The notes: generated from the letters alone by a model not told the origin. Positions 3,414-47,303 are shown, numbered from the stretch's first letter. The stretch: DNA of 64,000 nt from a bacterium (GCA_021806925.1 JAKAPS010000001.1:1237-65236); one strand, 5' to 3'. Translations and numbers: made by a program.

Positions 3414-3933
3414 GTCACATATAGATTATGTACGTGTAAATAAATCATATTCATAATAAACAATACTGTCTTTAACTCTACCATTACTCAAAATAACAAT
3501 ATAAGATCTATAAAGTGCAGGTATTCGTTCTAATTATTACTAATATATACTCAACCATCAATGTATTCTTAATGCAATCTGCAGGCGCTGAGTGAGTTAT
3601 TGTAAATGCTATACATACATCAACTGTATTCCAACAAGTTGTATCTTCAATAATGTACACTATAGACGATGTTTTTCCATATATAACATCATTTGATGTA
3701 ACTGTTACAGAAATACGCTTCTCTAAATTATAACATTCAACTATTTTTTTTATTGTATCCTAGCATATACTCTTATAGAATCTCTCTATATTACTATCCC
3801 CCCTTACTTTGTCTACAAATCTCAGATCTCCATTTCTAATAAACATACTAGTCAGGTTGTTCCTCCTAAACTCACATCATGTTTTTATTCAACAAAAATC
3901 GATTCATTAAGTGTATAATCAATTAATATAACT

Positions 3934-4956
3934 ATGGATGCTAACTTATTCGATTTTAATCTACCTGAAGAATTAATAGCTCAGAGAAGAGCAATACCTT
4001 TTGACTCATCAAAACTGCTTATTATAGACAGAAAAGATAATTACTCTTTAAAGCACTATATATTCAGAGATATTATAGACTTTCTTGATGAAAATACAGT
4101 TTTAGTTTTTAATAACACAATGGTTTTTAGAGCAAGACTATTTGTACAAAAAAGAACTGGTGCAAAGGTAGAAATACTGTTTCTGGAAAACCCTAATGAT
4201 TTAAATAGGAATAAATTTAAGGCATTAATTAGAGGGAAAATACATCTTGGGGAAAGTATAAAAATTGATGAAGTGTGCAATATAGAGGTAAAAGAAAAAA
4301 ATGATTACGTATATACAATTGAAATAATTGGTGACAGAGCAGGTATATATAACAAACTACAATACCCAACTCCTCCATATATTCATGGTGATATAACAGA
4401 TGAATATAACACTGTATATGCATCAGCAAAGAGTACTAATAGTGTCGCAGCGCCTACTGCTGGATTTCATTTTACAGATGAATTGCTAGAAAGACTAAGA
4501 AAAAAGAAAGTTATATTTGAAAATATTACTTTAAATATAGGGTTAGGGACATTCTTACCCGTAAAAACTACAAATATATTTGACCATGATATGCATTATG
4601 AAGAATACTTTATTGATAAAGATGTATTGATAAGATTGAATAAATATAAAGAAGAAGGTAAGAAGATAATCGCAGTCGGTACTACTACAACTAGAACACT
4701 TGAAGATAGTTCATTTGGAAGCAAGGGGAAATTAAAAAAAGAATATAATAATACAAATATATTTATATTCCCAGGCTTCAAATTTAATTTTGTTGATGGG
4801 CTAATAACTAATTTTCATCTTCCTAAATCAACATTAATAATGCTTGTGTCAGCATTTATTGGAGACACAAATAAAACGCTAGAAATATATAGAACTGCAA
4901 TAGAAGAAAAATACAGATTTTACTCTTTTGGAGATGCGATGTTTATTCTTCCTTGA
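3934..4956 (+). CDS. queA: S-adenosylmethionine:tRNA ribosyltransferase-isomerase
   Basis: N-terminal FDFNLPEELIAQRR, which is diagnostic of QueA. The 340-aa length is typical, and the gene marks the organism as bacterial. Confidence 0.9.
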   Translation: MDANLFDFNLPEELIAQRRAIPFDSSKLLIIDRKDNYSLKHYIFRDIIDFLDENTVLVFNNTMVFRARLFVQKRTGAKVEILFLENPNDLNRNKFKALIRGKIHLGESIKIDEVCNIEVKEKNDYVYTIEIIGDRAGIYNKLQYPTPPYIHGDITDEYNTVYASAKSTNSVAAPTAGFHFTDELLERLRKKKVIFENITLNIGLGTFLPVKTTNIFDHDMHYEEYFIDKDVLIRLNKYKEEGKKIIAVGTTTTRTLEDSSFGSKGKLKKEYNNTNIFIFPGFKFNFVDGLITNFHLPKSTLIMLVSAFIGDTNKTLEIYRTAIEEKYRFYSFGDAMFILP

Positions 4957-6115
4957 AGAATGCCTTCTCTAAATTTTTAACATAGTTTTTTACAAGAAAA
5001 TGATTTTTTGCGTAAAGAATTGCACTAGTTGATCTATCTGCAATCTCTTTTTTACCCATATTCAATAATGTAATTAATGATTTATTTATGCCTTTTTCAC
5101 TCAAATCGAAATACACACATATCTTTTTAAAATTCTTACTTCTGAAATTATTGATTGAACTTACTAATGCAATTAAACCAAGAGATAGTGCTTCCTTCAA
5201 AACAAGCGGTGAAGTTGAACTCTCATACCTTGATGGAATTATAACAGCATTCATTTTAGAAAGACTTTCAGGAAGTTCAAAGTGATTAACAAAGTGCATG
5301 TTTTTTATATTCCCATATTTCCTTTCAAGAAGATTGACATTTTCTTCATACTCACCTTCTCCAAAGAAGAAAAATTTAATTCTATTATAGTAATTCTTGT
5401 TATATTTATTAATAGCTGAAACTAGAATATCAATACCCTTCTGGTATGAATATCTTCCAACAAAAGCGACCTTGAATATATTTGTTGACTTCCTAGTTGT
5501 ATCTACTCGCAAAAATCTTTGATCAACCGGTGATTGAATTAATTTGCTCTTTTTAACAAGCATTTTTGTATCTCTATTGAATACATGGTATTTTGTAGAT
5601 ACAAGAAAAAGTAGTATTTTAAAAAATATAGAAAGATATGATACATACATTAGGTTATGAATTACAGACCTTACTATTAATTTCCCCTCGCTATCCCTTA
5701 GATTGTTATATCTTAAAGGAGTGTGAAATTGTACTATTATCTTTCTCCTCAGATGCGGAATAAAAGGTAGGAATAAGAAAAACGGAATAAGAGACGGCAT
5801 ATCGCTTCTGGTAAAGATATATGATGCTTTCTTTGACAAATGAAATAGTTCAATTAATGAGACTTTCTCATATTTACTTTTCTTTATTAACCCCTCTTCC
5901 ATTTGTTTGTTGGATAGTTTTATAGAGTCATCATAAAAAAGCTTATTGAAAATTCTTATATTTTTCTTGAATGATAAAATATGTACCTTGTAATTCTTTT
6001 TATTAGAAAATTCCTCTGCAGTTATAATATTCAATATTTCCGCTCCAGCTTGGATCTCATGTGGAAGTGAAGAGAAAAAAAGTATTGTTCTACCTGTAGA
6101 TTTTTTTACCTTCAT
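4943..6115 (-). CDS. Glycosyltransferase, GT-B fold (GT4-like family 1)
   Basis: C-terminal FFGEGEYEE...IIPSRYESSTSPLVLKEALSLGLIALVS resembles the GT4 nucleotide-sugar binding region. Confidence 0.7.
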   Translation of the reverse strand: MKVKKSTGRTILFFSSLPHEIQAGAEILNIITAEEFSNKKNYKVHILSFKKNIRIFNKLFYDDSIKLSNKQMEEGLIKKSKYEKVSLIELFHLSKKASYIFTRSDMPSLIPFFLFLPFIPHLRRKIIVQFHTPLRYNNLRDSEGKLIVRSVIHNLMYVSYLSIFFKILLFLVSTKYHVFNRDTKMLVKKSKLIQSPVDQRFLRVDTTRKSTNIFKVAFVGRYSYQKGIDILVSAINKYNKNYYNRIKFFFFGEGEYEENVNLLERKYGNIKNMHFVNHFELPESLSKMNAVIIPSRYESSTSPLVLKEALSLGLIALVSSINNFRSKNFKKICVYFDLSEKGINKSLITLLNMGKKEIADRSTSAILYAKNHFLVKNYVKNLEKAFFKEE

Positions 6116-17336: not shown

Positions 17337-17410
17337 TGGAGATGATGGGACTCGAACCCACAATCCCTGCAATGCGAATGCAGTGCTTTACCAAATTAAG
17401 CCACATCCCC
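17337..17410 (-). tRNA. tRNA-Ala (anticodon CGC)
   Basis: The reverse complement folds into a 74-nt cloverleaf: acceptor GGGGAUG/CAUCUCC with the G3:U70 Ala identity pair, D-stem GCUU/AAGC, anticodon stem CUGCA/UGCAG with loop UUCGCAU, and T-arm GUGGG-UUCGAGU-CCCAU. No CCA is encoded. Confidence 0.85.
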
Positions 17411-20435: not shown

Positions 20436-21413
20436 TTGAAAAACACAAAAACACTAATTATAAAAATTATATCAGTCACTTTGTTGTTGATTTTAGTATA
20501 TTTTATATCGAACCCACATATATTTAACAATAATAATATAGTTTCAAGAAAAACAAATAATGTTACAGTAGAAGCATATACTCCATTACAAAATTTTGAT
20601 ATTCAAACATGGAATAAAGAAGCATTTCTAACAAGCACTGGGTCCTTTACAATTGAAATACCCTACGATACTACAGTTACATTAAATAATGGAATATATA
20701 CATTAAGTGCTAAAGAGTATGGAACTGTAACAATATCTTCTACTATTGCAGTTGATGGTACAAATTCATTGCCATATGACGGATATATAAACAATATATT
20801 CAGAGCAAAGACAACCTATCTTAAGAACTCTAATGAAAGTATACAGATATATACAAAGAACAGTGTTATTTCATTTAACTTTTCTTCAAATGTTGAAAAC
20901 TTCGTGAAGGAATTTCTTACCACATTTATATATACAGAAGATTCAACTACAAATCCAATAGAAACGATTCTCTTTAAACATAATTTTGAGTCCAACAATA
21001 CATATACAATATTTTACCCTAGTAACTATTTCTTAGACCAGAAATATACAACTGGATATAGCCAATCCTGCCCAAACGAATCACTTGTAAAGCTCATAAA
21101 TTCAAACATGCAGAATATAATCACAATTGACTTTAATCCATGTGCAACCACACAATATGTAGTTACAGATTCAGTTATAAAGTATAACTCCATTGATATT
21201 TTTAAAGTGAGTAATAATGAATATTGTGCAATGAGCATGTCATCTCCACAAATGTCATATATTTCTTTAATTCCAGCAAGAAATTTGAACTTTGGATTTA
21301 ACTATACAGAATTCTTTGGTATTACACCAATCAAATTATGTCTATCATCACAAAATCCGTCGCAATATATACATGACTTAGAATACATTGGAACAAACAT
21401 GGATATATACTAA
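20436..21413 (+). CDS. Secreted or membrane-anchored hypothetical protein
   Basis: N-terminal signal/anchor helix followed by a hydrophilic Asn/Ser/Thr-rich body. Confidence 0.45.
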   Translation: MKNTKTLIIKIISVTLLLILVYFISNPHIFNNNNIVSRKTNNVTVEAYTPLQNFDIQTWNKEAFLTSTGSFTIEIPYDTTVTLNNGIYTLSAKEYGTVTISSTIAVDGTNSLPYDGYINNIFRAKTTYLKNSNESIQIYTKNSVISFNFSSNVENFVKEFLTTFIYTEDSTTNPIETILFKHNFESNNTYTIFYPSNYFLDQKYTTGYSQSCPNESLVKLINSNMQNIITIDFNPCATTQYVVTDSVIKYNSIDIFKVSNNEYCAMSMSSPQMSYISLIPARNLNFGFNYTEFFGITPIKLCLSSQNPSQYIHDLEYIGTNMDIY

Positions 21414-21458: not shown

Positions 21459-23480
21459 ATGAAAGGGAAAATCTTGCTATTGTTTTTTATTCCCTTACTG
21501 TCTATTCTCTATTTTTTTAGACCATTTACAAATGTATACGGTGCTACAGTTTGCTCTAATACACCAAATGAATTAAATATAAGCAACCAATTTTTACAAA
21601 ATAACGTTTATGCAGGAGTTCCATTTCCTCTTGTTATTTATGCATGTAATTCAAGTGGTCAAATAGATTCTACATTTAATGGAAATGTTCAATTGACAGA
21701 TAGTACAACTACTCTCTACCCATCTAGTACAACTAATTTTGTCGATGGTGTATGGTCTGGGCAAGTTACAATAACTAGAGCAATTAATTCTGATCAAATA
21801 ACTGCATACAGTTCTCTTTATGGAAACGGTATATCATCATCATTTAATGTATTACCTTCAGAAAATGGAATAATTGAAACAATAATACAGGGTTCAAATC
21901 AATCTGGGGTAGTAGGAAGCAATCTTCCACAGGCATTAAGTGTTACAACAACTGACCAATTCGGGAATATAGTCTCAGGCGTTGGCGTCACATTTACAAT
22001 TGCTCCTCCACCTAGTGGTGCTACAGGACAAAGCCTTTCAAACTATAGTGCAATTACTAATTCCAGTGGTTCTGCATCAACAGTGATGACATTAGGTACG
22101 AAAGAAGGAATATACATTGTTACCGTTCAAGTCTCAACTGGATCTTCAAAAACAAGCTCACAATATTATGAGTATGCTAGTAGCGGATCACTTGCAGTGT
22201 TAAATATATCTCCAGCAAGTGCTATTGTTCCTCAAGGAGGAGTTATTAATTTTCAAGCAAGCGGACTTGATAAATATGGTAATCCAGTAACAATATCTTC
22301 ACCTGTTTGGTCAATATCTAATGGTGGAGGTACAATCGATCAAAATGGAAATTTTACTGCAGGACAAACAACTGGCATGTACTATAACACAGTTTCTGCT
22401 GCAATCGGAGGTATAGGAACTACAGCAACAGTTAATATAATTTCAGCACAAAATGGTTCAGGGAGTGGAACAGGAGCTACATCAACACCAACTCCATCTC
22501 CAACTCCTACTCCAGACTATGTAACTGTTACACCAACTCCAACACCAACTCCTGATTATGTCACATTAACACCTACTCCATCACCAGATCCTATCGATCA
22601 TGTGCTTATAAATCCAAATCCTGTAACCGTTTCTCAAGGTGAATCAGTGTCTATTACTGCAACTGCGTATGATGCAAATAATAATCCATTGAATGGAACA
22701 TTTAATTGGGTTATATCAACTGGACTTGGAACACTTAGTTCAAATTATGGATCAAGTGTTACTTTGAATGCTGGTAATACACCTGGAAATGGTACAATAT
22801 CAGTTTCTGCTCTTAATTCAACAGGATCAAAAAGTGATACTGTAAATGTAACAATAATTCCTAGCCCGCTCGCACAAAAATTACTTAATGATAATATTGG
22901 AGGAGGACACTTCTATATAAAAAACATAGGGAATCAGACTACAAACACTCCATTTCTTGTAATAGTTATGGCAGAAGATAACAACAATAATATAATTAAG
23001 AATTTTAATAGTCCTATTGTAATTGATGATACTACGCATACAATAACACCTGGTAGCGGAACTAATTTCATAAACGGAATATGGTCTGGAAACGAAGTTA
23101 TCACAACTCCACAGAATAATGATGTTGTATCTGTTTCTGGCGGTGGTATAACTGGAACAAGTAATGAGTTCAATGTTACTGGTAAATCACCTCCAAATAT
23201 ATTTTCAACACTATCAAGCAAAATATCAAGTGTTATTGTACAAGCAAATAGTGGAACAAATTCTAAATTTGATTCAAGAATAATTAGTGCTGGATTAATA
23301 TCTGGTCTTGGACTTCTAGGTAGCGCACTAAGTATTGGACTAATGTCTTCAAAGGGCTTAGAGGCAATTGGAAGAAACCCCTATGCAAGAGGGAAGATAC
23401 AAATCTCAATGTTAATATCAACAGTGGTATGTATCGGAATATCTATTGCAGGGATTGTACTGTCTATAGTAATAAAGTGA
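21459..23480 (+). CDS. Large secreted Ig-like (Big) domain protein with a Thr/Pro linker and a C-terminal ATP synthase c-subunit-like transmembrane hairpin
   Basis: Signal peptide, then repeated beta-rich segments resembling bacterial Ig-like domains. A TPTPSPTPTPDYVTVTPTPTPTPDYVTLTPTPSPDP linker follows. The C-terminal 65 aa (GLISGLGLLGSALSIGLMSSKGLEAIGRNPYARGKIQISMLISTVVCIGISIAGIVLSIV) align with F-type AtpE (GxGxGxG helix, ARQP-like loop, second helix). Confidence 0.55.
   Translation: MKGKILLLFFIPLLSILYFFRPFTNVYGATVCSNTPNELNISNQFLQNNVYAGVPFPLVIYACNSSGQIDSTFNGNVQLTDSTTTLYPSSTTNFVDGVWSGQVTITRAINSDQITAYSSLYGNGISSSFNVLPSENGIIETIIQGSNQSGVVGSNLPQALSVTTTDQFGNIVSGVGVTFTIAPPPSGATGQSLSNYSAITNSSGSASTVMTLGTKEGIYIVTVQVSTGSSKTSSQYYEYASSGSLAVLNISPASAIVPQGGVINFQASGLDKYGNPVTISSPVWSISNGGGTIDQNGNFTAGQTTGMYYNTVSAAIGGIGTTATVNIISAQNGSGSGTGATSTPTPSPTPTPDYVTVTPTPTPTPDYVTLTPTPSPDPIDHVLINPNPVTVSQGESVSITATAYDANNNPLNGTFNWVISTGLGTLSSNYGSSVTLNAGNTPGNGTISVSALNSTGSKSDTVNVTIIPSPLAQKLLNDNIGGGHFYIKNIGNQTTNTPFLVIVMAEDNNNNIIKNFNSPIVIDDTTHTITPGSGTNFINGIWSGNEVITTPQNNDVVSVSGGGITGTSNEFNVTGKSPPNIFSTLSSKISSVIVQANSGTNSKFDSRIISAGLISGLGLLGSALSIGLMSSKGLEAIGRNPYARGKIQISMLISTVVCIGISIAGIVLSIVIK
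22486..22590 (+). repeat. Imperfect tandem repeat DNA encoding the TPTPTPDYVT(V/L)TPTP linker
   Basis: ACTCCAACTCC...GACTATGTAACTGTTACACC units are visible in the sequence. Confidence 0.5.
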
Positions 23481-23734: not shown

Positions 23735-24982
23735 ATGGATGAAACTTTAGCTATACAAAATCCATGGTGGGAAGGAAGGCCATTGAAAAAATCAGTAGAA
23801 AGGAAAGAAGCACTATATGCCCTTAAACAAAGAGTAAAAAATAATAGAGTTTGTATGCTACTCGGTGGAAGGAGAGTTGGTAAAACGACCCTTATACATC
23901 AATACATTGGCGAATTATTGAATACTGGTGTTGAACCAAAAAATATATGCTATATTCTTCTTGATTCTAATGCATTCGAGAAGATATCAATATTTGAACT
24001 AATAAGAAAATACCGACAAATACACAACTTAAAAAGAGATGAGAATGTTTATTTATTTCTTGATGAAATTCAATATAAGGATAATTGGGAGCAATATATC
24101 AAAAATATTTATGATACTGAACCAAATATAAATGTTATGTTATCTGGATCAGCAAGTTTTAAAATTCATACTAAAACCTCATTTTTAACTGGACGATTTT
24201 CAATTCTTTATCTTTATCCCTTGTCATTTAAAGAATTTCTTCAATTTAAAAACATACAAATCTCCCTATCTGAAAAGTATATATATGAAAATGAGTTAAA
24301 TGAATATCTTCTAAAAGGAGGTTATCCTGAATATCTTTTGACTGAAGATTATCAATACTTTCCAAATCTGGTTGACAGTATAATCTATAAGGATTTTGTC
24401 GAATATTTCAATATAAAGAATCTAAACATAGTAAAAGATTTACTTAAGCTTATTGCTGATAGAACTGGATCTCATACGAGTCTTTCAAAATTAGGAAAAA
24501 TATTATCAATAGCCAAGGAAACAGTAAGAGATTATGTCTTTGCACTAAAGGAAACATTTACTATTTATGAATTACAAAGATATGCTACATCAAGAAATGA
24601 AAGGATTTACTTTCCCAAAAAATATTATATAAATGATAATGGTTTATTATTTAACTTGAGCGGTAAGTTTAATAAAGGGCAAGTTGCAGAGCAAACACTT
24701 TTTGATTTCTTATATAAAAAGTATAATGAATCATTGTACTTTTATTATTACGATGGTATAGAGATAGATTTTCTTATTAAGGACGCTGATGGAATTCAGT
24801 TAATTGAATCTAAATATATTAATGATGTAGAAGAATTCGATTCGAAATTACTTGTTAAAGCTATGGAGACATTGAAAGTTAGTAAGGCTGTTGTAATAAC
24901 AGAATCTCTTGAAAATACAATAGAATTTAGTAATAAGTCTATAGAATATATTCCCCTATGGAAATATATTCTTTCTCTGTAA
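23735..24982 (+). CDS. AAA+ ATPase of the AAA_14/DUF4143 family
   Basis: Walker A GGRRVGKTTL, Walker B LFLDEIQ and the characteristic C-terminal DUF4143-like region. Confidence 0.8.
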   Translation: MDETLAIQNPWWEGRPLKKSVERKEALYALKQRVKNNRVCMLLGGRRVGKTTLIHQYIGELLNTGVEPKNICYILLDSNAFEKISIFELIRKYRQIHNLKRDENVYLFLDEIQYKDNWEQYIKNIYDTEPNINVMLSGSASFKIHTKTSFLTGRFSILYLYPLSFKEFLQFKNIQISLSEKYIYENELNEYLLKGGYPEYLLTEDYQYFPNLVDSIIYKDFVEYFNIKNLNIVKDLLKLIADRTGSHTSLSKLGKILSIAKETVRDYVFALKETFTIYELQRYATSRNERIYFPKKYYINDNGLLFNLSGKFNKGQVAEQTLFDFLYKKYNESLYFYYYDGIEIDFLIKDADGIQLIESKYINDVEEFDSKLLVKAMETLKVSKAVVITESLENTIEFSNKSIEYIPLWKYILSL

Positions 24983-25155: not shown

Positions 25156-25659
25156 ATGTTATATATTCTTATTGCTTTAAATGTATTTCTTCTTCTTTTA
25201 ATTGGCTTAATTATATTTTTTGTTTTAAAAGATAGAGATGTAGAGAAAAAATTACGTGAAGAACTTGAAACAATAAAAAAAGTATATGATGAAAAGACAA
25301 ATCTTTTCAAAGAAGAAGCTGATAAAGCTAAAGATTTAGCAAATATATCAGAACAAAATTATGATGCAATACAAAAAGAAATTGACTCAATAAAAATTGA
25401 ATACGAAAATAAGGAGAAAACATTAAATGATAATATTGAAGCGAAGATTAAAGAGTTATCTGAATTAGAGGAGACTGCTGTAAAAAGAGCAGAAGACAGG
25501 GTTAGAGAATATGAAAAGAGTCAGAAGACTGAAATAGAAAAGAATATGGTTGACCTAGTTATAAACGTAACAAAGAAAGTATTTGAAAAATCACTTACTT
25601 ATGAGGATCATAAAAGAATAATAGAAAAATCAATATCAGATTTAAAAATGGATGATTAA
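25156..25659 (+). CDS. atpF: F0F1 ATP synthase subunit b
   Basis: N-terminal TM helix followed by a long charged coiled coil, positioned upstream of delta. Confidence 0.75.
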   Translation: MLYILIALNVFLLLLIGLIIFFVLKDRDVEKKLREELETIKKVYDEKTNLFKEEADKAKDLANISEQNYDAIQKEIDSIKIEYENKEKTLNDNIEAKIKELSELEETAVKRAEDRVREYEKSQKTEIEKNMVDLVINVTKKVFEKSLTYEDHKRIIEKSISDLKMDD

Positions 25660-25664
25660 AAGAA

Positions 25665-26165
25665 ATGAACAGTATATACGATAAATTAAATGAAAAGATA
25701 TTCACAAAAAATGAGCTTGAAAATCTTGTCATTGATATTGAAAAATTAATAAAAAAATTAGATCAAAAATATACTGAAGAAGAGTTAAAGACAATCATAA
25801 ATGAAACAATAAGACAAAAGAAATTTGCTAATATATTTCTTGCAAGTATAAAGGTCAAATCTGGAATGACACCTGAAAAGATGCAGGATCTTGATAAGAA
25901 GCTTCATGATTTACCAAATACGAGAAAATCAGTCTCAATAATGACTGCAATTCCTATTTTAAATGAAGATATGGAATTTTTTGCTCAAATGATTCAAGAG
26001 AAAGATAGTTCTCCAATACTAATTAATTATAGTGTAGATTCATCATTAATAGGAGGTATTAAAGTAAAAGCACAGAAATACATATATGATTTATCTTTGA
26101 AAACGCATTTGGAGAAATATAAAGTGGAATGGTTGAAATTAATAAAACGACATAATGAATCATGA
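25665..26165 (+). CDS. atpH: F0F1 ATP synthase subunit delta (OSCP)
   Basis: 166 aa, C-terminal GGIKVKAQKYIYDLSLK typical of delta, and operon position. Confidence 0.7.
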   Translation: MNSIYDKLNEKIFTKNELENLVIDIEKLIKKLDQKYTEEELKTIINETIRQKKFANIFLASIKVKSGMTPEKMQDLDKKLHDLPNTRKSVSIMTAIPILNEDMEFFAQMIQEKDSSPILINYSVDSSLIGGIKVKAQKYIYDLSLKTHLEKYKVEWLKLIKRHNES

Positions 26166-27785
26166 ACGATCAAGATGATATCACTAGACTCTCTAATAAT
26201 ATTCCATTAGATGATTTTGAGCCTGAAATAACTGAAATAGGCGAAGTAGACTATATTGGTGATGGAATATGCAGAATAACAGGACTTCCCAATGCAAGAA
26301 TGGAAGATATAGTTAGGATTGAGGCAAAGGGCGAAGATGTACTAGGACTGATACTTGGGTTAAATGAAAATTATGTTGAGACAGTAATACTTGGAGATTT
26401 TTCAAAAATATCAAAAGGTGATGTTGTATCATCAGCAAAAAAAAGAATAAAGATACCATCAGGAGAAGAGGTATTTGGTAGAGTAATTGACCCACTTGGT
26501 AAGGCGATTGATGGAAACGGCGAACTAAAATCAAGAAAAATGGTTCAGATTGAAAATCCTGCACCTATGGTTAATGAAAGAGAACAAATTGTTGACCAGA
26601 TACGCACAGGAATACTTGTAGTAGATTCAATCATTCCCGTAGGTAAAGGACAAAGAGAATTAGTAATTGGAGATAGAAAATCTGGAAAAACTACTCTTGT
26701 TCAAAATATAATAATAAATCAAAAAGGTAAAGGTATTTTCTGTATATATGTCTCAGTACTTGGTAAAAAAGCTATGTTAAAGGGAATATATGAGACACTC
26801 TTAAAAGAAGGATGTATGGACTATACCGTAATAATTGCAGCAACATCTGATGACCTTCCATCAATGAGCTACATTGCACCGTACAGTGGATGTGCAATTG
26901 CAGAAAGTTTAATGAAACAAGGAAAAGACGCTTTAGTAATTTATGATGACCTTTCAAAACATGCAAAAGCATACAGACAAATGTCACTTCTGTTAAAAAG
27001 ATCTCCAGGAAGAGATGCATATCCAGGTGATATATTCTACCTTCATTCAAGACTTCTTGAAAGAAGTGCAAAATTATCAAAAGAACTTGGTGGGGGCAGT
27101 TCAACTGCTTTTCCAATGGCAGAAACTCAGTCAGGAGATATTTCAGAGTTTATTACAACAAATTTGATGAGTATAACTGATGGACATATATACCTTGATG
27201 TTAATTTAATGCATGAAGGTATATTGCCAGCTGTAGATAGCGGTTTTTCTGTTTCAAGAATTGGAGGTAGTATACAAACAAAACTGCTTCGAAAACTCGG
27301 AGAAATGGCCAGTAAATCACTTCAAAGATACAATGAGGTGAAATCCTTTGAAAATATAAATACGGAGATTTCTGAAGAAACTGAACGAGAACTAAAAAGA
27401 GGTAAAAGAGTATTGGAAATATTTAATCAACCAAGTAGTTTAAATATGTCACTTGCTGAAGAAGTTCTATCGCTTTTTATTGTATGTGCAGGGTTATATG
27501 ATGATATTGAACTAATTGATGTAAGAAAAATAAAGATTGAAGTAATTAATTTTTTGAGGCATGAAGATAATGTAACACTCCGAGATAAACTCAGCAGTGG
27601 AGACACAAGCTATGATGAACTAGAAGGAGAAATAAAACAGATGTTTTCTAAAGAATTCTTAATGAGCTTACTAAAAAGCGATGAACCTGTAGACTCAACA
27701 AACAACAAAACAGAAGATATACAAAATATTAGTGAAAAAACTAATAACACAGATACAAGTGAACCGATAAAGGAGGAAAACAAGG

Positions 27786-27802
<17 letters not shown>
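26162..27802 (+). CDS. atpA: F0F1 ATP synthase subunit alpha
   Basis: Walker A GDRKSGKTT plus extensive alpha-subunit motifs. It carries an acidic C-terminal extension. Confidence 0.9.
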
Positions 27803-30162
<2,360 letters not shown>

Positions 30163-30420
30163 ATGGATGATAATCAAAAATTAAAGATAAAAATAGTTAC
30201 GCAGGACTCACTTCTTTTTGATGGTGAAGCAAATAGAATCATCGCTCCAGGACAGAAAGGTAGCTCATTTGCAATATTACCATTTCACACACCATTTTTT
30301 TCCAAGATTTATGAAGGATTTATTGAGGTTCATAATGAAAATGATGTTAAAAAATTTGAAAGTAAAAGAGGTATTATACGTGTAATTAATAATGAAGTTC
30401 TCGTTATAACTGGTATATAG
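30163..30420 (+). CDS. atpC: F0F1 ATP synthase subunit epsilon, beta-sandwich domain only
   Basis: 85 aa, the epsilon N-terminal domain motif IVTQDSLLFDGEA. The C-terminal helical hairpin is absent. Confidence 0.65.
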   Translation: MDDNQKLKIKIVTQDSLLFDGEANRIIAPGQKGSSFAILPFHTPFFSKIYEGFIEVHNENDVKKFESKRGIIRVINNEVLVITGI

Positions 30421-30480: not shown

Positions 30481-30879
30481 TTATCTTATTCTCCTCTTTC
30501 TTTCATGTGAGCTATATTTCAAATTCACTGCAATGTAATTAATTATGATTAATAAAAATATACCAGTAGACAGTATAATATATGAGTATCTTGAAAAAAG
30601 TAAAAGAATATCTATATATAGTAGATTGAATAATATGTAATATATTGTTTTCTCTACATTAAAAAATATGTATGCAAATAGAAGAAATAATGCTACATTA
30701 AGAATAAATAACGCTATTGATATATATATGTAGTTATACATTCCAGTATTCGTGATAGGTGAAAACAAGATTATAAATACAATCTCTAAACATAAAAAAA
30801 GTATTGAGAAAGATAAGTAAATATTTCTAAAAGATATATTCCTAATACCTCTTAATTTATTGAATACCATACTTTTCAA
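30481..30879 (-). CDS. Small polytopic membrane protein
   Basis: 132 aa, 3-4 TM helices, last gene of the ATP-grasp operon. Confidence 0.35.
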   Translation of the reverse strand: MKSMVFNKLRGIRNISFRNIYLSFSILFLCLEIVFIILFSPITNTGMYNYIYISIALFILNVALFLLFAYIFFNVEKTIYYILFNLLYIDILLLFSRYSYIILSTGIFLLIIINYIAVNLKYSSHERKRRIR

Positions 30880-31750
30880 TTAATGATGAGACAAATATCT
30901 TTGCAACATTAACATTAGTTACTCTTTCAAATCTTTTAAACATTGGAATTGTATTACACTCCAGCATATATGGCTTTCCATCCTTCATTATCATATCAAT
31001 TCCTGCAAAGAATACATTGAGACTGCTGGCAATATTAATTGCCATATTTATCATATTATCATCTGGAAAATATTGATTAACAATTGAAGAAGATCTTCTT
31101 GTGTGAAAATCATCACTATCTTTAGATTCATTCTTTATTGCACCAATAAATCTATTATTTATAACAAGTAGTCTGTAATCAACACCACCTGGTACATACT
31201 CTTCTACCTGGAACACCTTATTTTTTCTTATATCCTGTTTAAGATACATAAATATTTCCTCTAGGTCATTCAACTTATATACTTCCTTAGCCCTTGATGA
31301 AGGCGATCCTTTTAATATATTAGGAAATTCTATACCTGCATTCTCTAACCTTTGTAATGAAACATTACTGCCCATACCTAAAAACGTTGTATCAAGCAAA
31401 TTTATATTCTTATTAGAGCTGCAACATAACATATAGTCACTGAATTTTGTACCAGAATTGAGAAGACTCACATCTGATATAACAATTCTATTTCCTAGTA
31501 ATTTCAAAGCTTCTACAATATATTTTGCATTCTCTCCACCAACCCTAACTAAATACACATCGAAACTAAGAATATCCCTACTTTCAATACATGTATCATC
31601 TTTAAATATTCCAATTTCCCCATTGATTATCTTTATAAACAGTGAGGATACATTGAGTCTTTCTATAGTAATATTGTTGTAAAAAGAGAATTCATCAACT
31701 ATTTTATCTGTTTCATAACTATATTTGTTTGTTATTATTGCTATCTTCAT
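30857..31750 (-). CDS. RimK-like ATP-grasp ligase (alpha-L-glutamate ligase family)
   Basis: N-terminal MKIAIITNKYS (compare RimK MKIAILS), QVEEYVPGGVDYRLLVINNRFIGAIKNESKDSDDFHTRRSS and MLECNTIPMF, all collinear with RimK. Confidence 0.7.
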   Translation of the reverse strand: MKIAIITNKYSYETDKIVDEFSFYNNITIERLNVSSLFIKIINGEIGIFKDDTCIESRDILSFDVYLVRVGGENAKYIVEALKLLGNRIVISDVSLLNSGTKFSDYMLCCSSNKNINLLDTTFLGMGSNVSLQRLENAGIEFPNILKGSPSSRAKEVYKLNDLEEIFMYLKQDIRKNKVFQVEEYVPGGVDYRLLVINNRFIGAIKNESKDSDDFHTRRSSSIVNQYFPDDNMINMAINIASSLNVFFAGIDMIMKDGKPYMLECNTIPMFKRFERVTNVNVAKIFVSSLIEKYGIQ

Positions 31751-31795
31751 TTATATAAATTCTATCACTTCTATTGTTTATATGACTTCCATTCC

Positions 31796-33211
31796 TTATA
31801 TTTTCTTTTCAACATCAACTAGAAAATCATTTAAATCACGCTCCCCTATAATACATTGGAATTTCAATTCTTCTCTACCTATAACATTTACAATTGTCTT
31901 CTTTTTTACATTACCGATCTTTATTGTTACCTCGAATCTTGGTCTGATACTAGTTCCGTTTCCATTATTAACCCTTGCAATTCCTCTATAATTAGCAAAA
32001 TCAAGTATAGATTCCAAGTGATATGACTCAATATTCTTAGATTCATGTTTTTGAGTTTTATAGTACTCCATGAATTCATCAAAGGAGTTTAATAATCCAA
32101 ACTCTCTTGCTAATGAAGAATCTATTGAGGTCGAATCTGCGCCTGTATCAACCTTTGCTAGTACAGTCAAATTCTTCTTCCTTACTTCAACATTCATATT
32201 AACATATCTTCCTATTACTGTCTTTCCAGTTATCTCTTCTATCTCTTCCTCAATCTCACCACCAAATAAGTCTTTTGCCAGTTTAATAGAATGCTTTATA
32301 GATTTAAATTTTAATTTTCTAACTCTTTCTAGCCTTTCTTTCAAACTATCATTATTTGCTATTTGAATTCCAAGTCCTGGTCTGGCATTAATTTCAAGAA
32401 TAGTAGGGCCATGGTCTCTGCAAAGAGCAATATCAACACCAGCAAGACCTAATCCAGATGCTATTTGAGCTTTTGTGCTTATCTCCAGAATCTGATCCCA
32501 GTATGGCACTCTGAATCCTACAATTTTAGACTTTGTATCTGGATGAATTTCTATTGGCTTGTTAAAATAAACACCACCAGTTGTTACACCAGATCCAATA
32601 TCAATGCCCACACCTATAGCTCCAATTGTAATATTAGCTTTTCCGCTTGATGCTACTGTTGGGAGTCTCATCATTGCCATTACAGGTATTTTATTAAATA
32701 CAATTACCCTTACATCGGGAATGCCTTTATATGTTAATAATTTAAATTCTTTTAGCAACTTCAGCCTCTCCTCAAAAAATGCCTTATCCTTTGTTCCACC
32801 CAATGAATATTTGTTATCCAGTATGTCAATGATATGCTTTTCTAAATCACTTTGATATATTTTTACACCATTTTGCTTAACCCATACTCTGTTTCCCTCT
32901 TTACTATGAAGTTTATCCTCACCATACACTACAATTATACCCCCTCCTGCATATCCTTTATTTGGTTTTAATACAAACGACTCTGGTAATTTACTCCAGT
33001 CAAAGCTTTCAATATCTTCCTTCTTTCTTATAACTCCTAAGGTTTTAGCTATTGGTAGTTTATTTTTCTTAAAAATTCTTTTTGCAAATAATTTATTGTC
33101 AGCTATTGCTCTTGAGTCTTTCAAGTTATACTTAAGAGTATACATTAAGTTTCTCTCATTTCTTCCTAGCATCCTATCCTGATTAACAAAGAATTTTAGA
33201 ATTTCATTCAT
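31796..33211 (-). CDS. Fusion of an ATP-grasp (RimK-related) domain with a C-terminal retropepsin-like (RimB / PF05618-type) aspartic protease domain
   Basis: ATP-grasp region with FVLKPNKGYAGGGIIVV, VMAMMRLPTVASSGKAN and ILEINARPGLGIQ. The C-terminus carries VLAKVDTGADSTSI (D-T-G-A aspartyl protease signature). Confidence 0.6.
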   Translation of the reverse strand: MNEILKFFVNQDRMLGRNERNLMYTLKYNLKDSRAIADNKLFAKRIFKKNKLPIAKTLGVIRKKEDIESFDWSKLPESFVLKPNKGYAGGGIIVVYGEDKLHSKEGNRVWVKQNGVKIYQSDLEKHIIDILDNKYSLGGTKDKAFFEERLKLLKEFKLLTYKGIPDVRVIVFNKIPVMAMMRLPTVASSGKANITIGAIGVGIDIGSGVTTGGVYFNKPIEIHPDTKSKIVGFRVPYWDQILEISTKAQIASGLGLAGVDIALCRDHGPTILEINARPGLGIQIANNDSLKERLERVRKLKFKSIKHSIKLAKDLFGGEIEEEIEEITGKTVIGRYVNMNVEVRKKNLTVLAKVDTGADSTSIDSSLAREFGLLNSFDEFMEYYKTQKHESKNIESYHLESILDFANYRGIARVNNGNGTSIRPRFEVTIKIGNVKKKTIVNVIGREELKFQCIIGERDLNDFLVDVEKKI

Positions 33212-33858
33212 TCTTTATCCATATCATTAATTACAGATCTGAATCTGATCATTTCATTAAATCGCAGATGCTTCCATCTTGAAAAAGCAATTGTTATGAA
33301 AATAAATAAAATATCTATTTCAGGATATCTCAGTAGGAACCATTGAGGTATAAAAAGAACAACTATATATGCAAGTATTGAAAGGATTAATGTATTAAAA
33401 AACATCAAAAAAGCAACTTTATTACCAGTTGATTTAAACATTGAAGTTATAAATATCTCAGAAATGGATATATATATAACCATTTCTATTGGTGAAATTG
33501 ATGATATATTAACCAATTTGAAAAAGAACATGAAATATATAAGAAAAATGACACTAATCAAACTTACTATTACAGCTATTCTTGGTAGATAATGTAAATT
33601 GAATGATTTTGTATATGTTTTAAGAAAGAATGAAATTAAATACACAAAAATTAAAAACAAGCTACCCTCAATTCCTCCACTCCCGTTTAAAAATGCAAAT
33701 ACAATAAGCATAGGTGTCTGAAAACCATAGGATTTGACTCCAACAACATTTCTTCCCATTGCAATAATTGAAGAAATAACAGGTATTAGTAGTAGATAAT
33801 AAAAAAGAGTTGGATTGGACACAAAAGCAGTTTGTATAAAACTTTCCATTTTTATCAA
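33208..33858 (-). CDS. Polytopic (about 6-7 TM) membrane protein, candidate partner of the ATP-grasp/protease pair
   Basis: 216 aa. It overlaps the downstream gene by 4 nt, which indicates translational coupling. Confidence 0.45.
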   Translation of the reverse strand: MIKMESFIQTAFVSNPTLFYYLLLIPVISSIIAMGRNVVGVKSYGFQTPMLIVFAFLNGSGGIEGSLFLIFVYLISFFLKTYTKSFNLHYLPRIAVIVSLISVIFLIYFMFFFKLVNISSISPIEMVIYISISEIFITSMFKSTGNKVAFLMFFNTLILSILAYIVVLFIPQWFLLRYPEIDILFIFITIAFSRWKHLRFNEMIRFRSVINDMDKE

Positions 33859-33899: not shown

Positions 33900-35093
33900 T
33901 CATTTAATATAGTCTTTGAAAATGCCTGCAATCTCCTTTGTTGTTTTCAATCTCCTTATTGCTTTTGATTCTATTTGCCTTATTCTTTCCCTCGTAACAT
34001 TGAATTCATGACCAACCTCCTCAAGTGTTCTACCAATACCATCTTTAAGTCCAAATCTAAGTTCTAGGACTTTCCTTTCTCTATCAGTAAGCGTTGAAAG
34101 AACATCCTCAATCTGCTCTTTAAGATATGCATAATCAGATATTTCAACTGGTGACATTGATTCTTCATCAGCAATAATATCACTCATATTTGAGGTTCTA
34201 TCTTCCCCTATCTTCGTTTCCAAAGATGTAGGAATTTGCATTATCTTAATTATTTCCTGAACTCTACTCTCATCAATACCCATTGTCTTCGCAATCTCTA
34301 ATGATGTCGGTTTTCTTTCTAATTTGATGGTAAGTTCATTAACAACCCTGGAAAGTTGATTTATCGTTTCTATCATATGAACTGGAACTCTTATAGTTCT
34401 AGCCTGATCGGCTATTGCTCTAGTTACAGCCTGTCTTATCCACCATGTAGCATATGTAGAGAATTTAAATCCTTTTTTGTAATCAAACTTTTCTACAGCT
34501 CTCATCAACCCCATATTCCCCTCCTGAATAAGATCAAGCAGGTCAAGCCCTCTTCTTTGATACTTTTTTGCTATACTCACAACAAGTCTTAAGTTTGCAG
34601 TAGTTAAGTAGCTTACAGCATCTTTATCACCCTTTTCAATACGCTTAGCTAAAATTACCTCCTCTTCACTTGTTAATAATGGAATTCTGCCAATCTCATG
34701 CAAGTATGCTCTCATAGGCTCATTTGCAACCGTGCTTTGAATCGATTTCAATATTTTTATCTTATCTTGCAGAGATTCTTTTGCATCAATGCTACTATCT
34801 GAATTTGAATCGCTTTTTCCTATAGCCTTTAGGTCAACAGCATTCTTGCCACTACTCTTTGATACTGGTTCATCATCACCTACACCAACTATTTCAAGGC
34901 CAATATCAAGAAGATTTGTTATCAACAAATCTATTTCAGGTACGAAATTTTCAACCTCTGGAAAAACACCCAACACATCGGATTGGGTTAAGAATCCCTT
35001 TTTCTTCGCTAAATTTAATAAGGAATCTAACCTAACTGAACTCTTTTTACTTATTTTTAGAGGTTGCATGTAAATACTTGTATTTGCTTTCAC
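33900..35093 (-). CDS. rpoD: RNA polymerase primary sigma factor (sigma-70)
   Basis: Region 2 ([53 protein letters not shown]), region 3, and the region 4 helix-turn-helix ([27 protein letters not shown]). Confidence 0.9.
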
Positions 35094-35126
35094 TGCATTA
35101 TATATTATATACGGAAAGTTGTCTAT

Positions 35127-35987
35127 ATGTTTTTTTATGATTCATTCCTTACACTAAAAGAAAGCTTAAAACTATTAAAAAAGAGAAAAAAGCTCGTTTT
35201 TCTCTCATTTATACTATCTCTAGCTGGATTTAGCCTTCAAAGCCAACCACTCCTTTTCATTGAATTTTCAAATAGAATATATACAGATAATTATTCTTTT
35301 TTAAAGGCTTTTATTGTATTTGCAATCGCTTCATGGTTTATTTCCCTTATATTATCAAGCTTTTTACTACCAAAAATGATATATATATTAAAAGCTAAGG
35401 ATAAAAATATTAGAAATACTAAAAACAGATATATTAGTAAGTTTACAAAGGCATTCCCTATTGTTTTTTCTTATTATATAGCCCTTATAGTTATTTCTGG
35501 AGGCGGAATAATATATCTAATTAATTTATTAATAAAATTAACGGTATCATCAGGAAATATATCCAGCTCATTCTTATTAAGCACAGATAGTAGACCTATA
35601 CTTGCTATATTCTTCACATTTGGCGTACTGTTGCAGGCATATATCTTTATACTATTTCTGTTTACACTGTTCTTTAGATTTGCAGACAGGAAAAAGTTCA
35701 CAGTATCTGTACTTTACGCAATTAACTTCATATCAAAAAGATTTTTTGATGTGCTAACAGGTTGGATATTACAGACATTAGTATTTATTGTTCCTACAAT
35801 TGCAATTATATTGTTCTTTGTAGATTTGCAGAATCTATATTCTGATATTCCATCACTATTAATTCCATTTTTCCTGTTAATGATTATAACGATGGTACTT
35901 TATTCAATGTTTGCTATAATAGTATCAATTTCCTATTGGTGGATATTGTTTAAGAAGTACAATAAGAAAAAAGTCTTTGTAAGATAA
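35127..35987 (+). CDS. Polytopic membrane protein, hypothetical
   Basis: Multiple TM helices. The start is moved to an internal Met to avoid overlapping the divergent rpoD start. Confidence 0.4.
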
Positions 35988-44934: not shown

Positions 44935-45204
44935 CTATTTTATAGTGTTTGATCTATTTATAACTTCTAGTGGTTGTTTTCTTCCACCAGCAATATTTAA
45001 TATATCAAAAGGGTCCTGAATGTATGTAAATACTATCGTGTATAGAATAATAAAAACAGGAACATAAATTGTTATTGCTACAATAAAATGATATATGGAA
45101 ATAAAGCCAAAATAATTAAATATTTTACCACCAAATACATAAAATACGACTAGAAATAAAATAACAATTAATGCTTCTATTATACAACCAATTTGATTTT
45201 TCAT
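44935..45204 (-). CDS. Small membrane protein, hypothetical
   Basis: 89 aa, two TM helices. Confidence 0.25.
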   Translation of the reverse strand: MKNQIGCIIEALIVILFLVVFYVFGGKIFNYFGFISIYHFIVAITIYVPVFIILYTIVFTYIQDPFDILNIAGGRKQPLEVINRSNTIK

Positions 45205-47303
45205 TCTTCTATATTCCAGTTTATATTATCACCAGATTTTATATCCCCTTGTATTATTTTTTCAACAATAGGGTCTTCAATTTTCTCCTCAACCATTCTC
45301 TTTAATGGTCTTGCACCATATTTATCAGAAATGCCATTCTTTGCAATAAATTCAATTGATTCATCTGGTACTGTCAATGTTATATTCTTATCTTTTAATC
45401 TACTAGCTAAATCTTTAATAAATATCTCAACTATTTTCTTTCCAGCATCAACATTTAGTTTGTTGAATTTAATTATCTTATCAATTCTATTTAAAAATTC
45501 AACTCTAAAGAATGTATTAAGCTTATACTCATCAACAATATTTGACGTCATAATAATAATTGTGTTCTTAAAATCAACAGTTTTACCCTGTCCATCAGTA
45601 AGTCTACCATCATCAAGAACTTGCAAAAATATATCAAATATTTTTGGATTTGCTTTTTCGACCTCATCAAGAAGAATTAAAGAATATGGTTTCTGCAACA
45701 CTTTATTTGTTAATTGGCCGCCTTCCTCATATCCTACATAACCTGGAGGAGCTCCAACCAATCTATCAACAGTATGCGTCTCTGAGTATTCACTCATATC
45801 AATTCTAATCATTGCACTTTCATCCTTGTATATTACATTGGCAAGTGCTTTTGCTAATTGAGTTTTTCCAGTACCAGACGGACCAAGAAATAGGAATGAT
45901 CCAATGGGTCTCTTTGGATCTCTTAATCCAGCACGTGACCTCTTTATAGTCTTTGATACTGCCTCAACTGCTTCATCCTGACCAATAACACTCTTTTCAA
46001 GTATATTTTCTAGATTCTGCAAATCCTGTATTTCCTGTAAAGAAATATCCTCAATAGGTATATTTGTTTTTTGAGCAAGAACAAATTTCATAGTACTTAT
46101 AGATATCTCGTCTTCATTCTTTATTTTTGATTGAGAAATTGAATCATCAATAAGAGAAATTGCACTCGCAGGTAAAAAAGTATCATGTATGTACCTTTTT
46201 GCAAGTGAAATAGCTAAATCTGAAAATCCATTTTCAAATTTCACACCTTTTTCTCTCTCAATGTATGAAACAACAATTTTTTTCACTAAGTCAGCCTCAG
46301 GTTCATCCATAAAAACAATTTCACTATTCTTTATCAAATTCTTGTTATTCTTCATCATCAATTGATATAGAGAGAAATCAATTGGAATTACTGCGTAAAA
46401 TGGAGATAATAGGATATCATTTATTAAGTCTTCATAATCCTCTTTAAGTGTCCTGTTATCAGATCCGTTTGATTCAAGATTTTCTAAATATATAACTACC
46501 TTATTCTTGTTATTTAGTACACTTGATATTTTCTTTATATTATATATTCTTTCTAAATAATCTGGTTTTGATAAATCAACATCATATATTATCGATCCCT
46601 TGAATATGGAATCATTACCATCTGAAATATTTGCAAGCAGGTATTTTGTTGATTTCTTACCTATTCCGTCATTTCCAACTAATAGTACATTTCTTTTTGT
46701 GTTTTTGTAGAATATCCTTATAATCTGTTCTGTTATATTATCCCTTGGAATATACGATTCATCAGCTTGTAAATTAATTAATGGATTATCCTCATCACTT
46801 TCTTTGTTATTAAGAAATTCTGATGAATATATATCAGTAGATTTTTCATTTGGTATATTTAGAGATTTTGCAATGAAATTAGAATCAATATCAATATATT
46901 TTTTTCTTGCTAGTGCATATAGAAGAGTACAAGGCGTAACAAATTTGTAATTTAAAGTTATTGATATATTGGTAGCATCAATTAAGCATTCATTAACCGA
47001 CTGTTTCATCGTTATTTTATCTATATTCTTCAATCCATTCTTCCCAGATGACTTTGATTCGTCATTTATCTTGTTACTACAATTACTTATGAATGAATTT
47101 TGGAATCCCATCTTCCTTACTATATCAATAGATTCTGTATCTATATTAAGTATTGCATATGCAATTACATCCTCATTTATCTCTTTAATTTTCTTCCTAT
47201 AGCAAATAGAACCAGACATAGATAATACGTCAAGCAATGTTTCAGATAAGAATGCTGTTAAATCTATAATATTAAAACTTTTAACTCCATCTCTATTATC
47301 CAT
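45201..47303 (-). CDS. ClpC/ClpB-family AAA+ chaperone with Clp_N domain, degenerate D1 and intact D2
   Basis: D2 region VIGQDEAVEAVSKTIKRSRAGLRDPKRPIGSFLFLGPSGTGKTQLAKALA...LLDEVEKANPKIFDIFLQVLDDGRLTD...IIMTSN. The D1 Walker A reads GNDGIGKKS, which is non-canonical. Confidence 0.8.
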   Translation of the reverse strand: MDNRDGVKSFNIIDLTAFLSETLLDVLSMSGSICYRKKIKEINEDVIAYAILNIDTESIDIVRKMGFQNSFISNCSNKINDESKSSGKNGLKNIDKITMKQSVNECLIDATNISITLNYKFVTPCTLLYALARKKYIDIDSNFIAKSLNIPNEKSTDIYSSEFLNNKESDEDNPLINLQADESYIPRDNITEQIIRIFYKNTKRNVLLVGNDGIGKKSTKYLLANISDGNDSIFKGSIIYDVDLSKPDYLERIYNIKKISSVLNNKNKVVIYLENLESNGSDNRTLKEDYEDLINDILLSPFYAVIPIDFSLYQLMMKNNKNLIKNSEIVFMDEPEADLVKKIVVSYIEREKGVKFENGFSDLAISLAKRYIHDTFLPASAISLIDDSISQSKIKNEDEISISTMKFVLAQKTNIPIEDISLQEIQDLQNLENILEKSVIGQDEAVEAVSKTIKRSRAGLRDPKRPIGSFLFLGPSGTGKTQLAKALANVIYKDESAMIRIDMSEYSETHTVDRLVGAPPGYVGYEEGGQLTNKVLQKPYSLILLDEVEKANPKIFDIFLQVLDDGRLTDGQGKTVDFKNTIIIMTSNIVDEYKLNTFFRVEFLNRIDKIIKFNKLNVDAGKKIVEIFIKDLASRLKDKNITLTVPDESIEFIAKNGISDKYGARPLKRMVEEKIEDPIVEKIIQGDIKSGDNINWNIEE

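Follow-up and report, generated by a model that had tools for sequence, protein, structure and literature searches.

The closest described counterparts of the gene cluster reported here are the RloABC system of Pseudomonas aeruginosa and, next to it, the RimK-RimB pair. The cluster is located in a bacterial DNA stretch of 64,000 nucleotides (nt; GCA_021806925.1 JAKAPS010000001.1:1237-65236), hereafter called the window, from whose start all coordinates are counted, and it consists of four minus-strand open reading frames (ORF1 to ORF4) downstream of rpoD. Within RloABC, RloA is a secreted retropepsin-like protease that cuts runs of at least eight glutamates, RloB is an inner-membrane protein that combines a periplasmic inactive-transglutaminase domain with seven transmembrane (TM) helices, and RloC is a cytoplasmic ATP-grasp protein (Lormand et al., mBio 2025, PMC12239564). 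Since in Pseudomonas a triple rloA mutant is saved from osmotic death by the deletion of either rloB or rloC, ligase, seven-transmembrane (7TM) protein and protease act in one pathway (PMC12239564). Mutants of the system are characterized by hypo-osmotic lethality, an altered cell shape and ampicillin sensitivity, periplasmic RloA proteins possess a conserved disulfide, and RloB was reported to be 96% proteobacterial (PMC12239564). In the RimK-RimB(-RimA) system of Pseudomonas, the partner of an ATP-grasp alpha-L-glutamate ligase is a cytoplasmic PF05618 retropepsin, which binds and stimulates the ligase and trims polyglutamate (PMC11957791, PMC4741518). Bound RimB increases the ATPase activity of RimK about fourfold, and both proteins had to be present for free poly-alpha-L-glutamate to be detected (PMC11957791). 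We find that the module in the window is a widespread, unstudied variant of these polyglutamate-type systems.

The locus is a real operon in a tiny-genome bacterium of the Candidate Phyla Radiation (CPR). A preliminary description of this DNA had placed four minus-strand ORFs here and had read three of them as a 7TM protein, a fusion of a RimK-related ATP-grasp domain to a D-T-G-A, PF05618-like domain, and a second, RimK-like ligase. All four ORFs are present at the coordinates given below, and profile as well as fold searches bear out these domain claims, with matches far better than chance would produce. Its interpretation as an ATP-grasp/retropepsin/7TM triad, a type of system then predicted computationally, also holds, with RloABC as the counterpart that has been studied experimentally (PMC12239564). 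Both systems comprise the same three families, an RloC-type ligase, an RloA-type retropepsin and an RloB-type 7TM protein with the same tail motif, and in both the genes are co-directional and tightly linked, with the three functions in one operon. However, in the window the protease forms the C-terminus of the cytoplasmic ligase and lacks a signal peptide as well as the Cys pair of periplasmic RloA. ORF1 possesses neither the N-terminal TM helix nor the periplasmic inactive-transglutaminase domain and comprises 216 amino acids (aa), compared to 508-512 aa. Furthermore, the gene order is 7TM, ligase-protease instead of protease, 7TM, ligase; the CPR form adds one or more RimK-like ligases and a conserved acidic linker; and the host is a CPR bacterium. 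Two features that define RloABC, the secreted protease and the transglutaminase domain, are missing, while the catalytic cores are kept. If compared to RimK-RimB, the ORF2 fusion is a covalent version of the ligase-protease pairing, and ORF3 belongs to the RimK family. In contrast to that system, the fused ligase is of the RloC type, the 7TM partner is obligatory, no RimA/EAL gene is present and ORF3 fails the equivalog model of ligases that glutamylate ribosomal protein S6.

The central component is ORF2 (31796-33211, minus strand; 471 aa), in which an ATP-grasp ligase domain (residues 20-298, 32318-33154), an acidic linker and a retropepsin-like domain (residues 330-471, 31799-32224) follow each other on one polypeptide. 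Residues 20-298 match PF14397 (ATPgrasp_ST) with an E-value of 3.3e-66 and 223.8 bits (cutoff 31.4), and the best NCBIfam match of ORF2 is TIGR02291, 'alpha-L-glutamate ligase-like' (1.4e-80, 270.7 bits). The residues of the Mg/ATP site, D260, E273 and N275, align to the GVDI...E-V-N segment of RimK and are invariant in all 26 homologs compared, whose identity to ORF2 is about 47%, while an N-terminal motif, G-x-N-x-R-N-x-x-Y, is common to ORF2, stand-alone RloC and an archaeal fusion protein described below. An AlphaFold2 model of full-length ORF2 reached a predicted local distance difference test (pLDDT) score of 81.7, and the top Foldseek matches of its ligase part were RimK, the poly-alpha-L-glutamate synthetase (5zct, 4.5e-10), together with ArgX/LysX; the Ddl fold matches as well. 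The fold match to RimK comes with about 18% sequence identity, the domain is 38% identical to RloC of Aeromonas and Legionella, and ORF2 obtains 17.8 bits with the S6-glutamate ligase model NF007764, whose cutoff is 331. Judged by these comparisons, the ORF2 ligase is an RloC-type rather than a RimK-type ATP-grasp enzyme.

The C-terminal domain of ORF2 is assigned by both profile and fold. In a scan of the whole protein, the PF05618 and RloA models matched this domain at sub-threshold level only, and the isolated domain scored 25.6 bits with PF13650 (Asp_protease_2), above the cutoff of 24.3. Isolated C-terminal domains from the fusion family matched PF05618 in 19 of 19 cases, with a best E-value of 7e-14, and a profile built from the 26 homologs retrieved 9g58 (1.3e-7), 9g59 (4.8e-7) and 2pma (5e-4) from the PDB. 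The AlphaFold2 model of the domain has a pLDDT of 84, and Foldseek ranked Pseudomonas fluorescens RloA (9g58, 2.6e-7), Legionella Lpg0085/DUF785 and P. aeruginosa RloA2 at the top, followed by retroviral-protease-like domains of Ddi1 and by HIV-1 protease. The catalytic DTGA motif, read from the translation at residues 355-358 (32138-32149, minus strand), was found in 200 of 200 fusion homologs. Four residues, K353, D355, R423 and R446, are invariant across the 26 homologs and align with K26, D28, R94 and R117 of 9g58, which correspond to K46, D48, R114 and R137 of RloA by a single numbering offset of 20 that we inferred. In RloA these are the catalytic Asp and the polyglutamate-binding residues, and they are needed for activity (PMC12239564). 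At the level of the alignment, the catalytic and polyglutamate-binding residues of RloA are thus conserved in the fusion. No Cys is present in the protease domain of 157 of the 200 homologs. Since the domain follows a soluble ATP-grasp domain, it must be located in the cytoplasm and is not secreted as in Pseudomonas.

ORF1 (33208-33858, minus strand) encodes 216 aa if read from a TTG; an alternative ATG at 33849, which is the start chosen by the public gene caller and the probable one, gives a product of 213 aa. It matches PF14402 (7TM_transglut) with 2.7e-14 and 53.7 bits (cutoff 25) over profile positions 49-247 of 248, while the NCBIfam model of RloB is matched at positions 313-508 of 508 only. 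Over its full length, the protein can be aligned to the C-terminal half of RloB from Legionella and Aeromonas and also to the N-terminal half of the archaeal fusion. On the basis of these alignments, ORF1 is the RloB-type 7TM half without the periplasmic inactive-transglutaminase domain, and the 74 CPR homologs examined are all of comparable size (202-257 aa). Its C-terminal tail motif, GLRxxExxRF, is common to the CPR proteins, proteobacterial RloB and the archaeal fusion.

This archaeal protein was found on a plasmid of Halobacterium sp. DL1 (CP007061.1, L084:4164-5918), where an ORF of 584 aa that is unannotated in the record fuses a 7TM domain to an RloC-type ligase. It resembles the CPR form in its transglutaminase-less 7TM domain, its RloC-type ligase, the tail motif and the G-x-N-x-R-N motif, whereas it differs in that the partner of the ligase is a membrane domain instead of a protease and in its archaeal host. 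No DTGA-containing ORF was detected within 10.9 kb of it. The ORF adjoins transposase genes. Because the 7TM domain is here continuous with the ligase, the C-terminus of the 7TM protein and the ligase share the cytoplasmic side, which places the tail of ORF1 in the cytoplasm. The ligase-protease fusion of CPR bacteria and the 7TM-ligase fusion of the Halobacterium plasmid are two independent Rosetta-stone cases. Since ligase and protease are one polypeptide in the former and 7TM protein and ligase one polypeptide in the latter, it is very probable that the three components work as a single physical unit on the cytoplasmic side of the membrane.

Canonical rloA-rloB-rloC loci were seen on plasmid 5 of Legionella adelaidensis (L082) and in Aeromonas caviae (L083). 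The Aeromonas RloA carries a lipobox signal, and the Legionella RloA does so if an upstream start is accepted. The gene concerned (L082, about 2930-3439) is labelled 'RimK/LysX family protein', and from its annotated start, MANNEK..., no signal peptide is present. With an in-frame start further upstream the protein gains MRLVLFFIFSWTFLCGS, which resembles a lipoprotein signal, so that the gene has probably been annotated too short; its product name is misleading.

Relatives of the fusion protein occur in at least 409 species-representative genomes, almost all of which are labelled CPR. The best 120 protein matches all share the fusion architecture (451-502 aa), most of them with precomputed PF14397 and PF05618 assignments, and the named sources among these 120 are Moranbacteria or Parcubacteria. 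For the gene neighbourhood we rely on the best 80 fusion-bearing loci (L002-L081) from a scan of species-representative genomes. In 78 of them a 7TM gene of 202-257 aa stands immediately upstream of the fusion, often overlapping it, and the remaining two begin at a contig edge; the pairing of 7TM protein and fusion is obligatory. A transglutaminase domain is fused to the 7TM gene in none of the 80 loci. One to three further ATP-grasp genes follow the fusion, at position +1 in 66/80, at +2 in 40/80 and at +3 in 17/80. Thus, the fusion and the extra ligase, both of which the preliminary description had called unusual, turn out to be the norm for a large, annotated but unstudied CPR family. In Moranbacteria-type loci (for example L006:3843-12195, L027:8485-10501 and L008:9270-11111), the 7TM-fusion-ATP-grasp cluster is inserted between yebC-ruvC upstream and ruvA downstream, PBP1A follows the cluster in 55 of the 80 loci, and a GT4 glycosyltransferase, a YdjC-type deacetylase, a GNAT protein and a MATCAP/DUF1704 peptidase are optional members. 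A 613-aa HExxH protein without Pfam match is another optional member. Many records of metagenome-assembled genomes labelled 'uncultured Bdellovibrionales' or 'Micavibrio' (e.g., L002, L004, L006, L010) contain the CPR-type cluster and the neighbours that are also seen in records labelled Moraniibacteriota or Paceibacteria, and the deposited taxonomic labels look unreliable.

A literature search, with incomplete coverage, found no description of the fused CPR form. New are the cytoplasmic protease, the invariant polyglutamate-binding residues, the near-invariant acidic linker helix and the haloarchaeal 7TM-ligase fusion. The system, seen mainly in Proteobacteria before, is extended to Archaea and to hundreds of CPR species, and the CPR form shows that the periplasmic transglutaminase domain and the secretion of the protease are dispensable elaborations. 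Its retention in genomes of very small size, downstream of rpoD in one lineage and, in another, flanked by ruvC and ruvA and next to PBP1A, makes the module likely to be important for the envelope physiology of CPR bacteria. A single-chain ligase-protease plus a small 7TM protein would also be easier to reconstitute in vitro than the Pseudomonas system, and the CPR form can constrain the biochemistry of RloABC, namely the product of RloC, the role of RloB and the in vivo target of RloA.

Our preferred reading, to which we assign a probability of roughly 0.6, is that the locus encodes a membrane-docked writer and eraser of glutamate-rich peptides and represents a CPR relative of RloABC and RimK-RimB. 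Accordingly worded as a model, ORF1 would reside in the membrane and expose its conserved, basic C-terminal tail to the cytoplasm, where it would recruit the RloC-type ligase of ORF2; the motif GLRxxExxRF of the 7TM tail and the motif G-x-N-x-R-N-x-x-Y of the ligase may serve as docking elements. The ligase would add L-glutamate or a similar residue stepwise with ATP, and the resulting peptide would be either free or attached to an acceptor that is bound to the 7TM protein or lodged within it. ORF3 would prime or extend the same acidic chain, while the fused retropepsin would dimerise and cut it, limiting its length or releasing it as RimB does for RimK. The product would finally act on or across the cell envelope. 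It is the amino acid used, the acceptor, the docking of the tail, the dimerisation and the physiological role that we infer in this model. Writing and trimming of peptide tails fits the loci, because extra ATP-grasp genes are present in 66 of 80 and a MATCAP/DUF1704 carboxypeptidase occurs in some. The earlier guess, addition or trimming of poly-amino-acid tails or synthesis of a small peptide, agrees with what we likewise regard, by analogy to the described systems, as the best explanation.

Several observations weigh against this reading. The TIGR02291 score of ORF2 (270.7 bits) stays below the equivalog cutoff of 314.2, and the isolated protease domain reaches 25.2 bits with PF05618, just under the cutoff of 27. 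That RloC-type ligases use glutamate would follow only by extrapolation from their similarity to RimK and from the specificity of the protease. In the CPR protease domain, a variable and largely helical segment of lower model confidence takes the place of the RloA flap, and with this change the specificity of the protease may differ. The tail of the 7TM protein was considered as a glutamylation substrate and rejected, since the tails are basic (…RFRxxxKK) in the 74 homologs. A tblastn search with Escherichia coli S6 found no rpsF in the 64-kb window, and none of the acidic-tailed substrate candidates in the window was convincing. Finally, the name of PF14397, which refers to an association with sugar transfer, and the GT4, YdjC and PBP1A neighbours elsewhere in CPR genomes point to a glycan or cell-wall acceptor instead of a protein. 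As a separate observation, only two proteins of the window end in -EE, a GT1 glycosyltransferase (4943-6115, minus strand) and a ClpB-like AAA+ protein (45201-47303, minus strand). Both have, in principle, acceptor termini of the RimK type, and nothing ties either of them to the module.

A glycan or cell-wall acceptor is the core of the competing explanation that survives best. According to it, the module would be an amidoligase system of envelope glycan or peptidoglycan: at the cytoplasmic face of the 7TM protein, the PF14397 ligase and ORF3 would load amino acids onto an envelope precursor that is a sugar or is lipid-linked, the 7TM protein would be a scaffold or flippase, and the protease would process the peptide part of the precursor instead of polyglutamate. 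Besides the Pfam name and description of PF14397, Moranbacteria-type clusters speak for this, as they commonly contain GT4, YdjC-type deacetylase and GNAT genes and have PBP1A at their end in the 55 loci mentioned above. The envelope phenotypes of RloABC mutants (PMC12239564) and the hyper-vesiculation of a mutant in a Shewanella RloB homolog (PMC12096838) are in line with it too. However, no glycan or PBP gene adjoins the module in the window or in its nearest relatives, where the 7TM-fusion core is intact nevertheless. The protease retains all four polyglutamate-binding residues of RloA, and the nearest structural neighbours of the ligase are ligases of peptides and protein tails (RimK, ArgX/LysX), not sugar-modifying enzymes. 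We regard a glycan amidoligase as a possible explanation that should be kept in mind, while considering it rather improbable.

A further alternative concerns the acidic linker of ORF2 (residues 315-329, 32225-32269, minus strand), which reads LFGGEIEEEIEEITG. The motif L-F-G-G-E-[IV]-E-E-E-[VIL]-E-[ED]-[IL]-[ST]-G-[RK] was found in 200/200 fusion homologs (about 47% overall identity to ORF2), its hydrophobic residues are spaced i, i+4, i+7, and AlphaFold2 models a helix at residues 319-328 with a pLDDT of about 57-76; the linker is predicted to form an amphipathic helix. An origin as an intrinsic C-terminal feature of RloC was rejected: the stand-alone RloC proteins of Legionella and Aeromonas end where the linker begins ('...KEMFAR' and '...DHFGIFDE'), and the linker is therefore specific to the fusion. 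One might speculate that ORF2 is a self-processing, self-priming ligase-protease, in which the retropepsin would cut the linker in the style of a retroviral polyprotein, or in which the linker would occupy the basic channel of the protease as a pseudo-substrate. Its cutting or displacement would then switch between synthesis and degradation of a peptide, and the 7TM partner would hand the acidic peptide to the cell surface. If this were true, CPR bacteria and some archaea would carry an unrecognised, compact pathway for non-ribosomal acidic-peptide secretion or envelope modification, and the fused form could reveal the biochemistry of RloB and RloC. The role of the linker as a classical RloA or RimB cleavage site is weakened, as it contains at most three consecutive Glu and is predicted to be helical, while RloA requires at least eight (PMC12239564). 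We consider self-processing doubtful.

The third alternative turns on ORF3 (30857-31750, minus strand; 297 aa, beginning MKIAIITNKYS). This protein matches PF08443 (RimK) with 7.3e-15, obtains 73.8 bits with TIGR00768, under the cutoff of 143, and carries the sequence GIDM...LECN at the equivalent of the metal site. A word-indexed homolog search with ORF3 returned only the protein itself, while BLAST against neighbour genes brought up relatives: ORF3 shows 28-31% identity to the RimK-like genes that occupy its position in L085 and L086, the two nearest relatives of the window, and 25-27% identity to accessory ATP-grasp subfamily 2, which is present in 31/80 loci. From these matches, ORF3 is best described as a divergent RimK-family ligase that is putatively accessory to the module. 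It could be argued that ORF3 glutamylates the C-terminus of S6 and that the ORF2 protease trims this tail, tuning translation as in RimK/RimB-type S6 modification. The family membership of ORF3, a protease that is cytoplasmic like RimB, and the physical interaction of RimB with RimK (PMC11957791) fit this idea. Likewise, the order rpoD-7TM-fusion-RimK-like is kept in the two nearest relatives, L085 (GCA_025450075.1) and L086, that is, in 3/3 genomes including the window, and such a position would fit a role in gene expression. However, ORF3 scores 33.1 bits with the S6-glutamate ligase equivalog NF007764, compared to its cutoff of 331, the fused ligase is RloC-type and not RimK-type, and the ORF3 subfamily occurs in 31 of 80 loci, in contrast to the 78 of 80 with the 7TM partner, which would have no role in S6 modification. 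The adjacency to rpoD is, in addition, absent from 80/80 other loci. Consequently, we judge modification of S6 to be unlikely.

Linkage to rpoD as a general feature of the module was rejected, since rpoD lies within 6 kb in 0/80 related loci. The proximity to rpoD, which had also been called unusual, is indeed so among fusion loci, whereas within the window's own lineage it is conserved and thus specific to that lineage. The gene itself (33900-35093, minus strand; 397 aa) encodes a primary sigma factor with RpoD equivalog domains, nearest to sequences of Patescibacteria/Dojkabacteria with 57-66% identity. It is separated from ORF1 by 41 nt, or by 50 nt if counted from the ATG start. Further downstream, the stop of ORF1 and the start of ORF2 share 4 nt (ATGA), ORF2 and ORF3 are spaced by 45 nt, and ORF3 and ORF4 overlap by 23 nt. 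The best promoter-like site (35125-35097, 11/12 matches) is found upstream of rpoD, while the rpoD-ORF1 interval contains no terminator-like site and no convincing promoter. Since a promoter-like site precedes rpoD and no terminator-like site precedes ORF1, co-transcription from rpoD through ORF1-ORF4 is plausible. We regard rpoD as the context and probably the transcription source of the module and not as a functional part of it.

ORF4 (30481-30879, minus strand) is a small hydrophobic protein of 132 aa (129 aa from an ATG) for which Pfam, NCBIfam and PADLOC gave no family match. A search of 1.84 billion representative proteins retrieved only ORF4 itself, and no homolog was found in the 80 related loci. 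At the equivalent position L085 possesses a hydrophobic gene of 118 aa whose similarity to ORF4 is not significant (score 63, compared to a shuffle mean of 51 with a standard deviation of 8.6). As a conserved component of the module ORF4 was rejected on these grounds, and the earlier inclusion of ORF4 in the operon as a component finds no conserved counterpart in the 80 loci; it is an orphan whose membership in the module is uncertain. That four unrelated genes lie downstream of rpoD by chance, without any joint function, which the orphan ORF4 and the lack of close ORF3 homologs in the word-indexed search might suggest, is highly improbable: synteny is conserved, with the 7TM-fusion pair in 78/80 loci across diverse CPR genomes, so that unrelated neighbours, the outcome that the preliminary description had set against its own proposal, are not what is found, ORF1 and ORF2 overlap at stop and start, domain fusions tie ligase to protease and 7TM protein to ligase, and in Pseudomonas the three counterparts share an operon and are linked by genetic epistasis (PMC12239564).

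More distant systems share single aspects with the module. Retroviral proteases, such as HIV protease in Gag-Pol, and the RVP domain of Ddi1 have the same fold and the D-T-G-A motif and are likewise part of a multidomain polypeptide. They differ from ORF2, whose predicted specificity is acidic rather than hydrophobic and in which a helical segment replaces the flap. The pairing of TTL-type ligases with MATCAP/DUF1704 carboxypeptidases is an analogy only. It is prompted by the PF08014 (MATCAP-family) peptidase that accompanies the ATP-grasp cluster in some CPR loci (L027:9104-10501, 6e-21) and is in keeping with a scheme in which C-terminal residues are written and erased, while the eukaryotic substrate, tubulin, is irrelevant to CPR loci, and no MATCAP homolog is present in the window. 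A role in anti-phage defence was considered and dropped, as ORF1-ORF4 gave no PADLOC match at E-values up to 0.01.

With respect to the remaining window, an Rfam scan at gathering thresholds for regulatory RNA gave one tRNA only. This tRNA-Ala(CGC) (17337-17410, minus strand) is the sole tRNA and the sole Rfam gathering-level match in the 64 kb. Divergent from rpoD, a gene at 35064-35987 (plus strand) encodes a polytopic membrane protein of about 290-307 aa without Pfam match; its position is kept in the nearest relative (L085:5181-6056), together with an M23 peptidase and rpsT. Upstream of the ATP synthase genes (25156-30420), an ORF of 673 aa (21459-23480, plus strand), which the public gene caller also treats as a single gene, ends in an ATP synthase c-subunit domain (PF00137, 30.6 bits, cutoff 24, residues 609-672), and its N-terminal part contains weak Ig-like domains (Big_1, Invasin_D3). 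The roughly 60 residues preceding the c-domain contain no Met, and the second helix of this domain lacks Glu or Asp, the usual ion-binding carboxylate. The gene at 20436-21413 showed no ATP-synt_A match. An AAA_14/DUF4143 ATPase gene (23735-24982, plus strand) separates the ORF with the c-subunit domain from the remainder of the ATP synthase operon.

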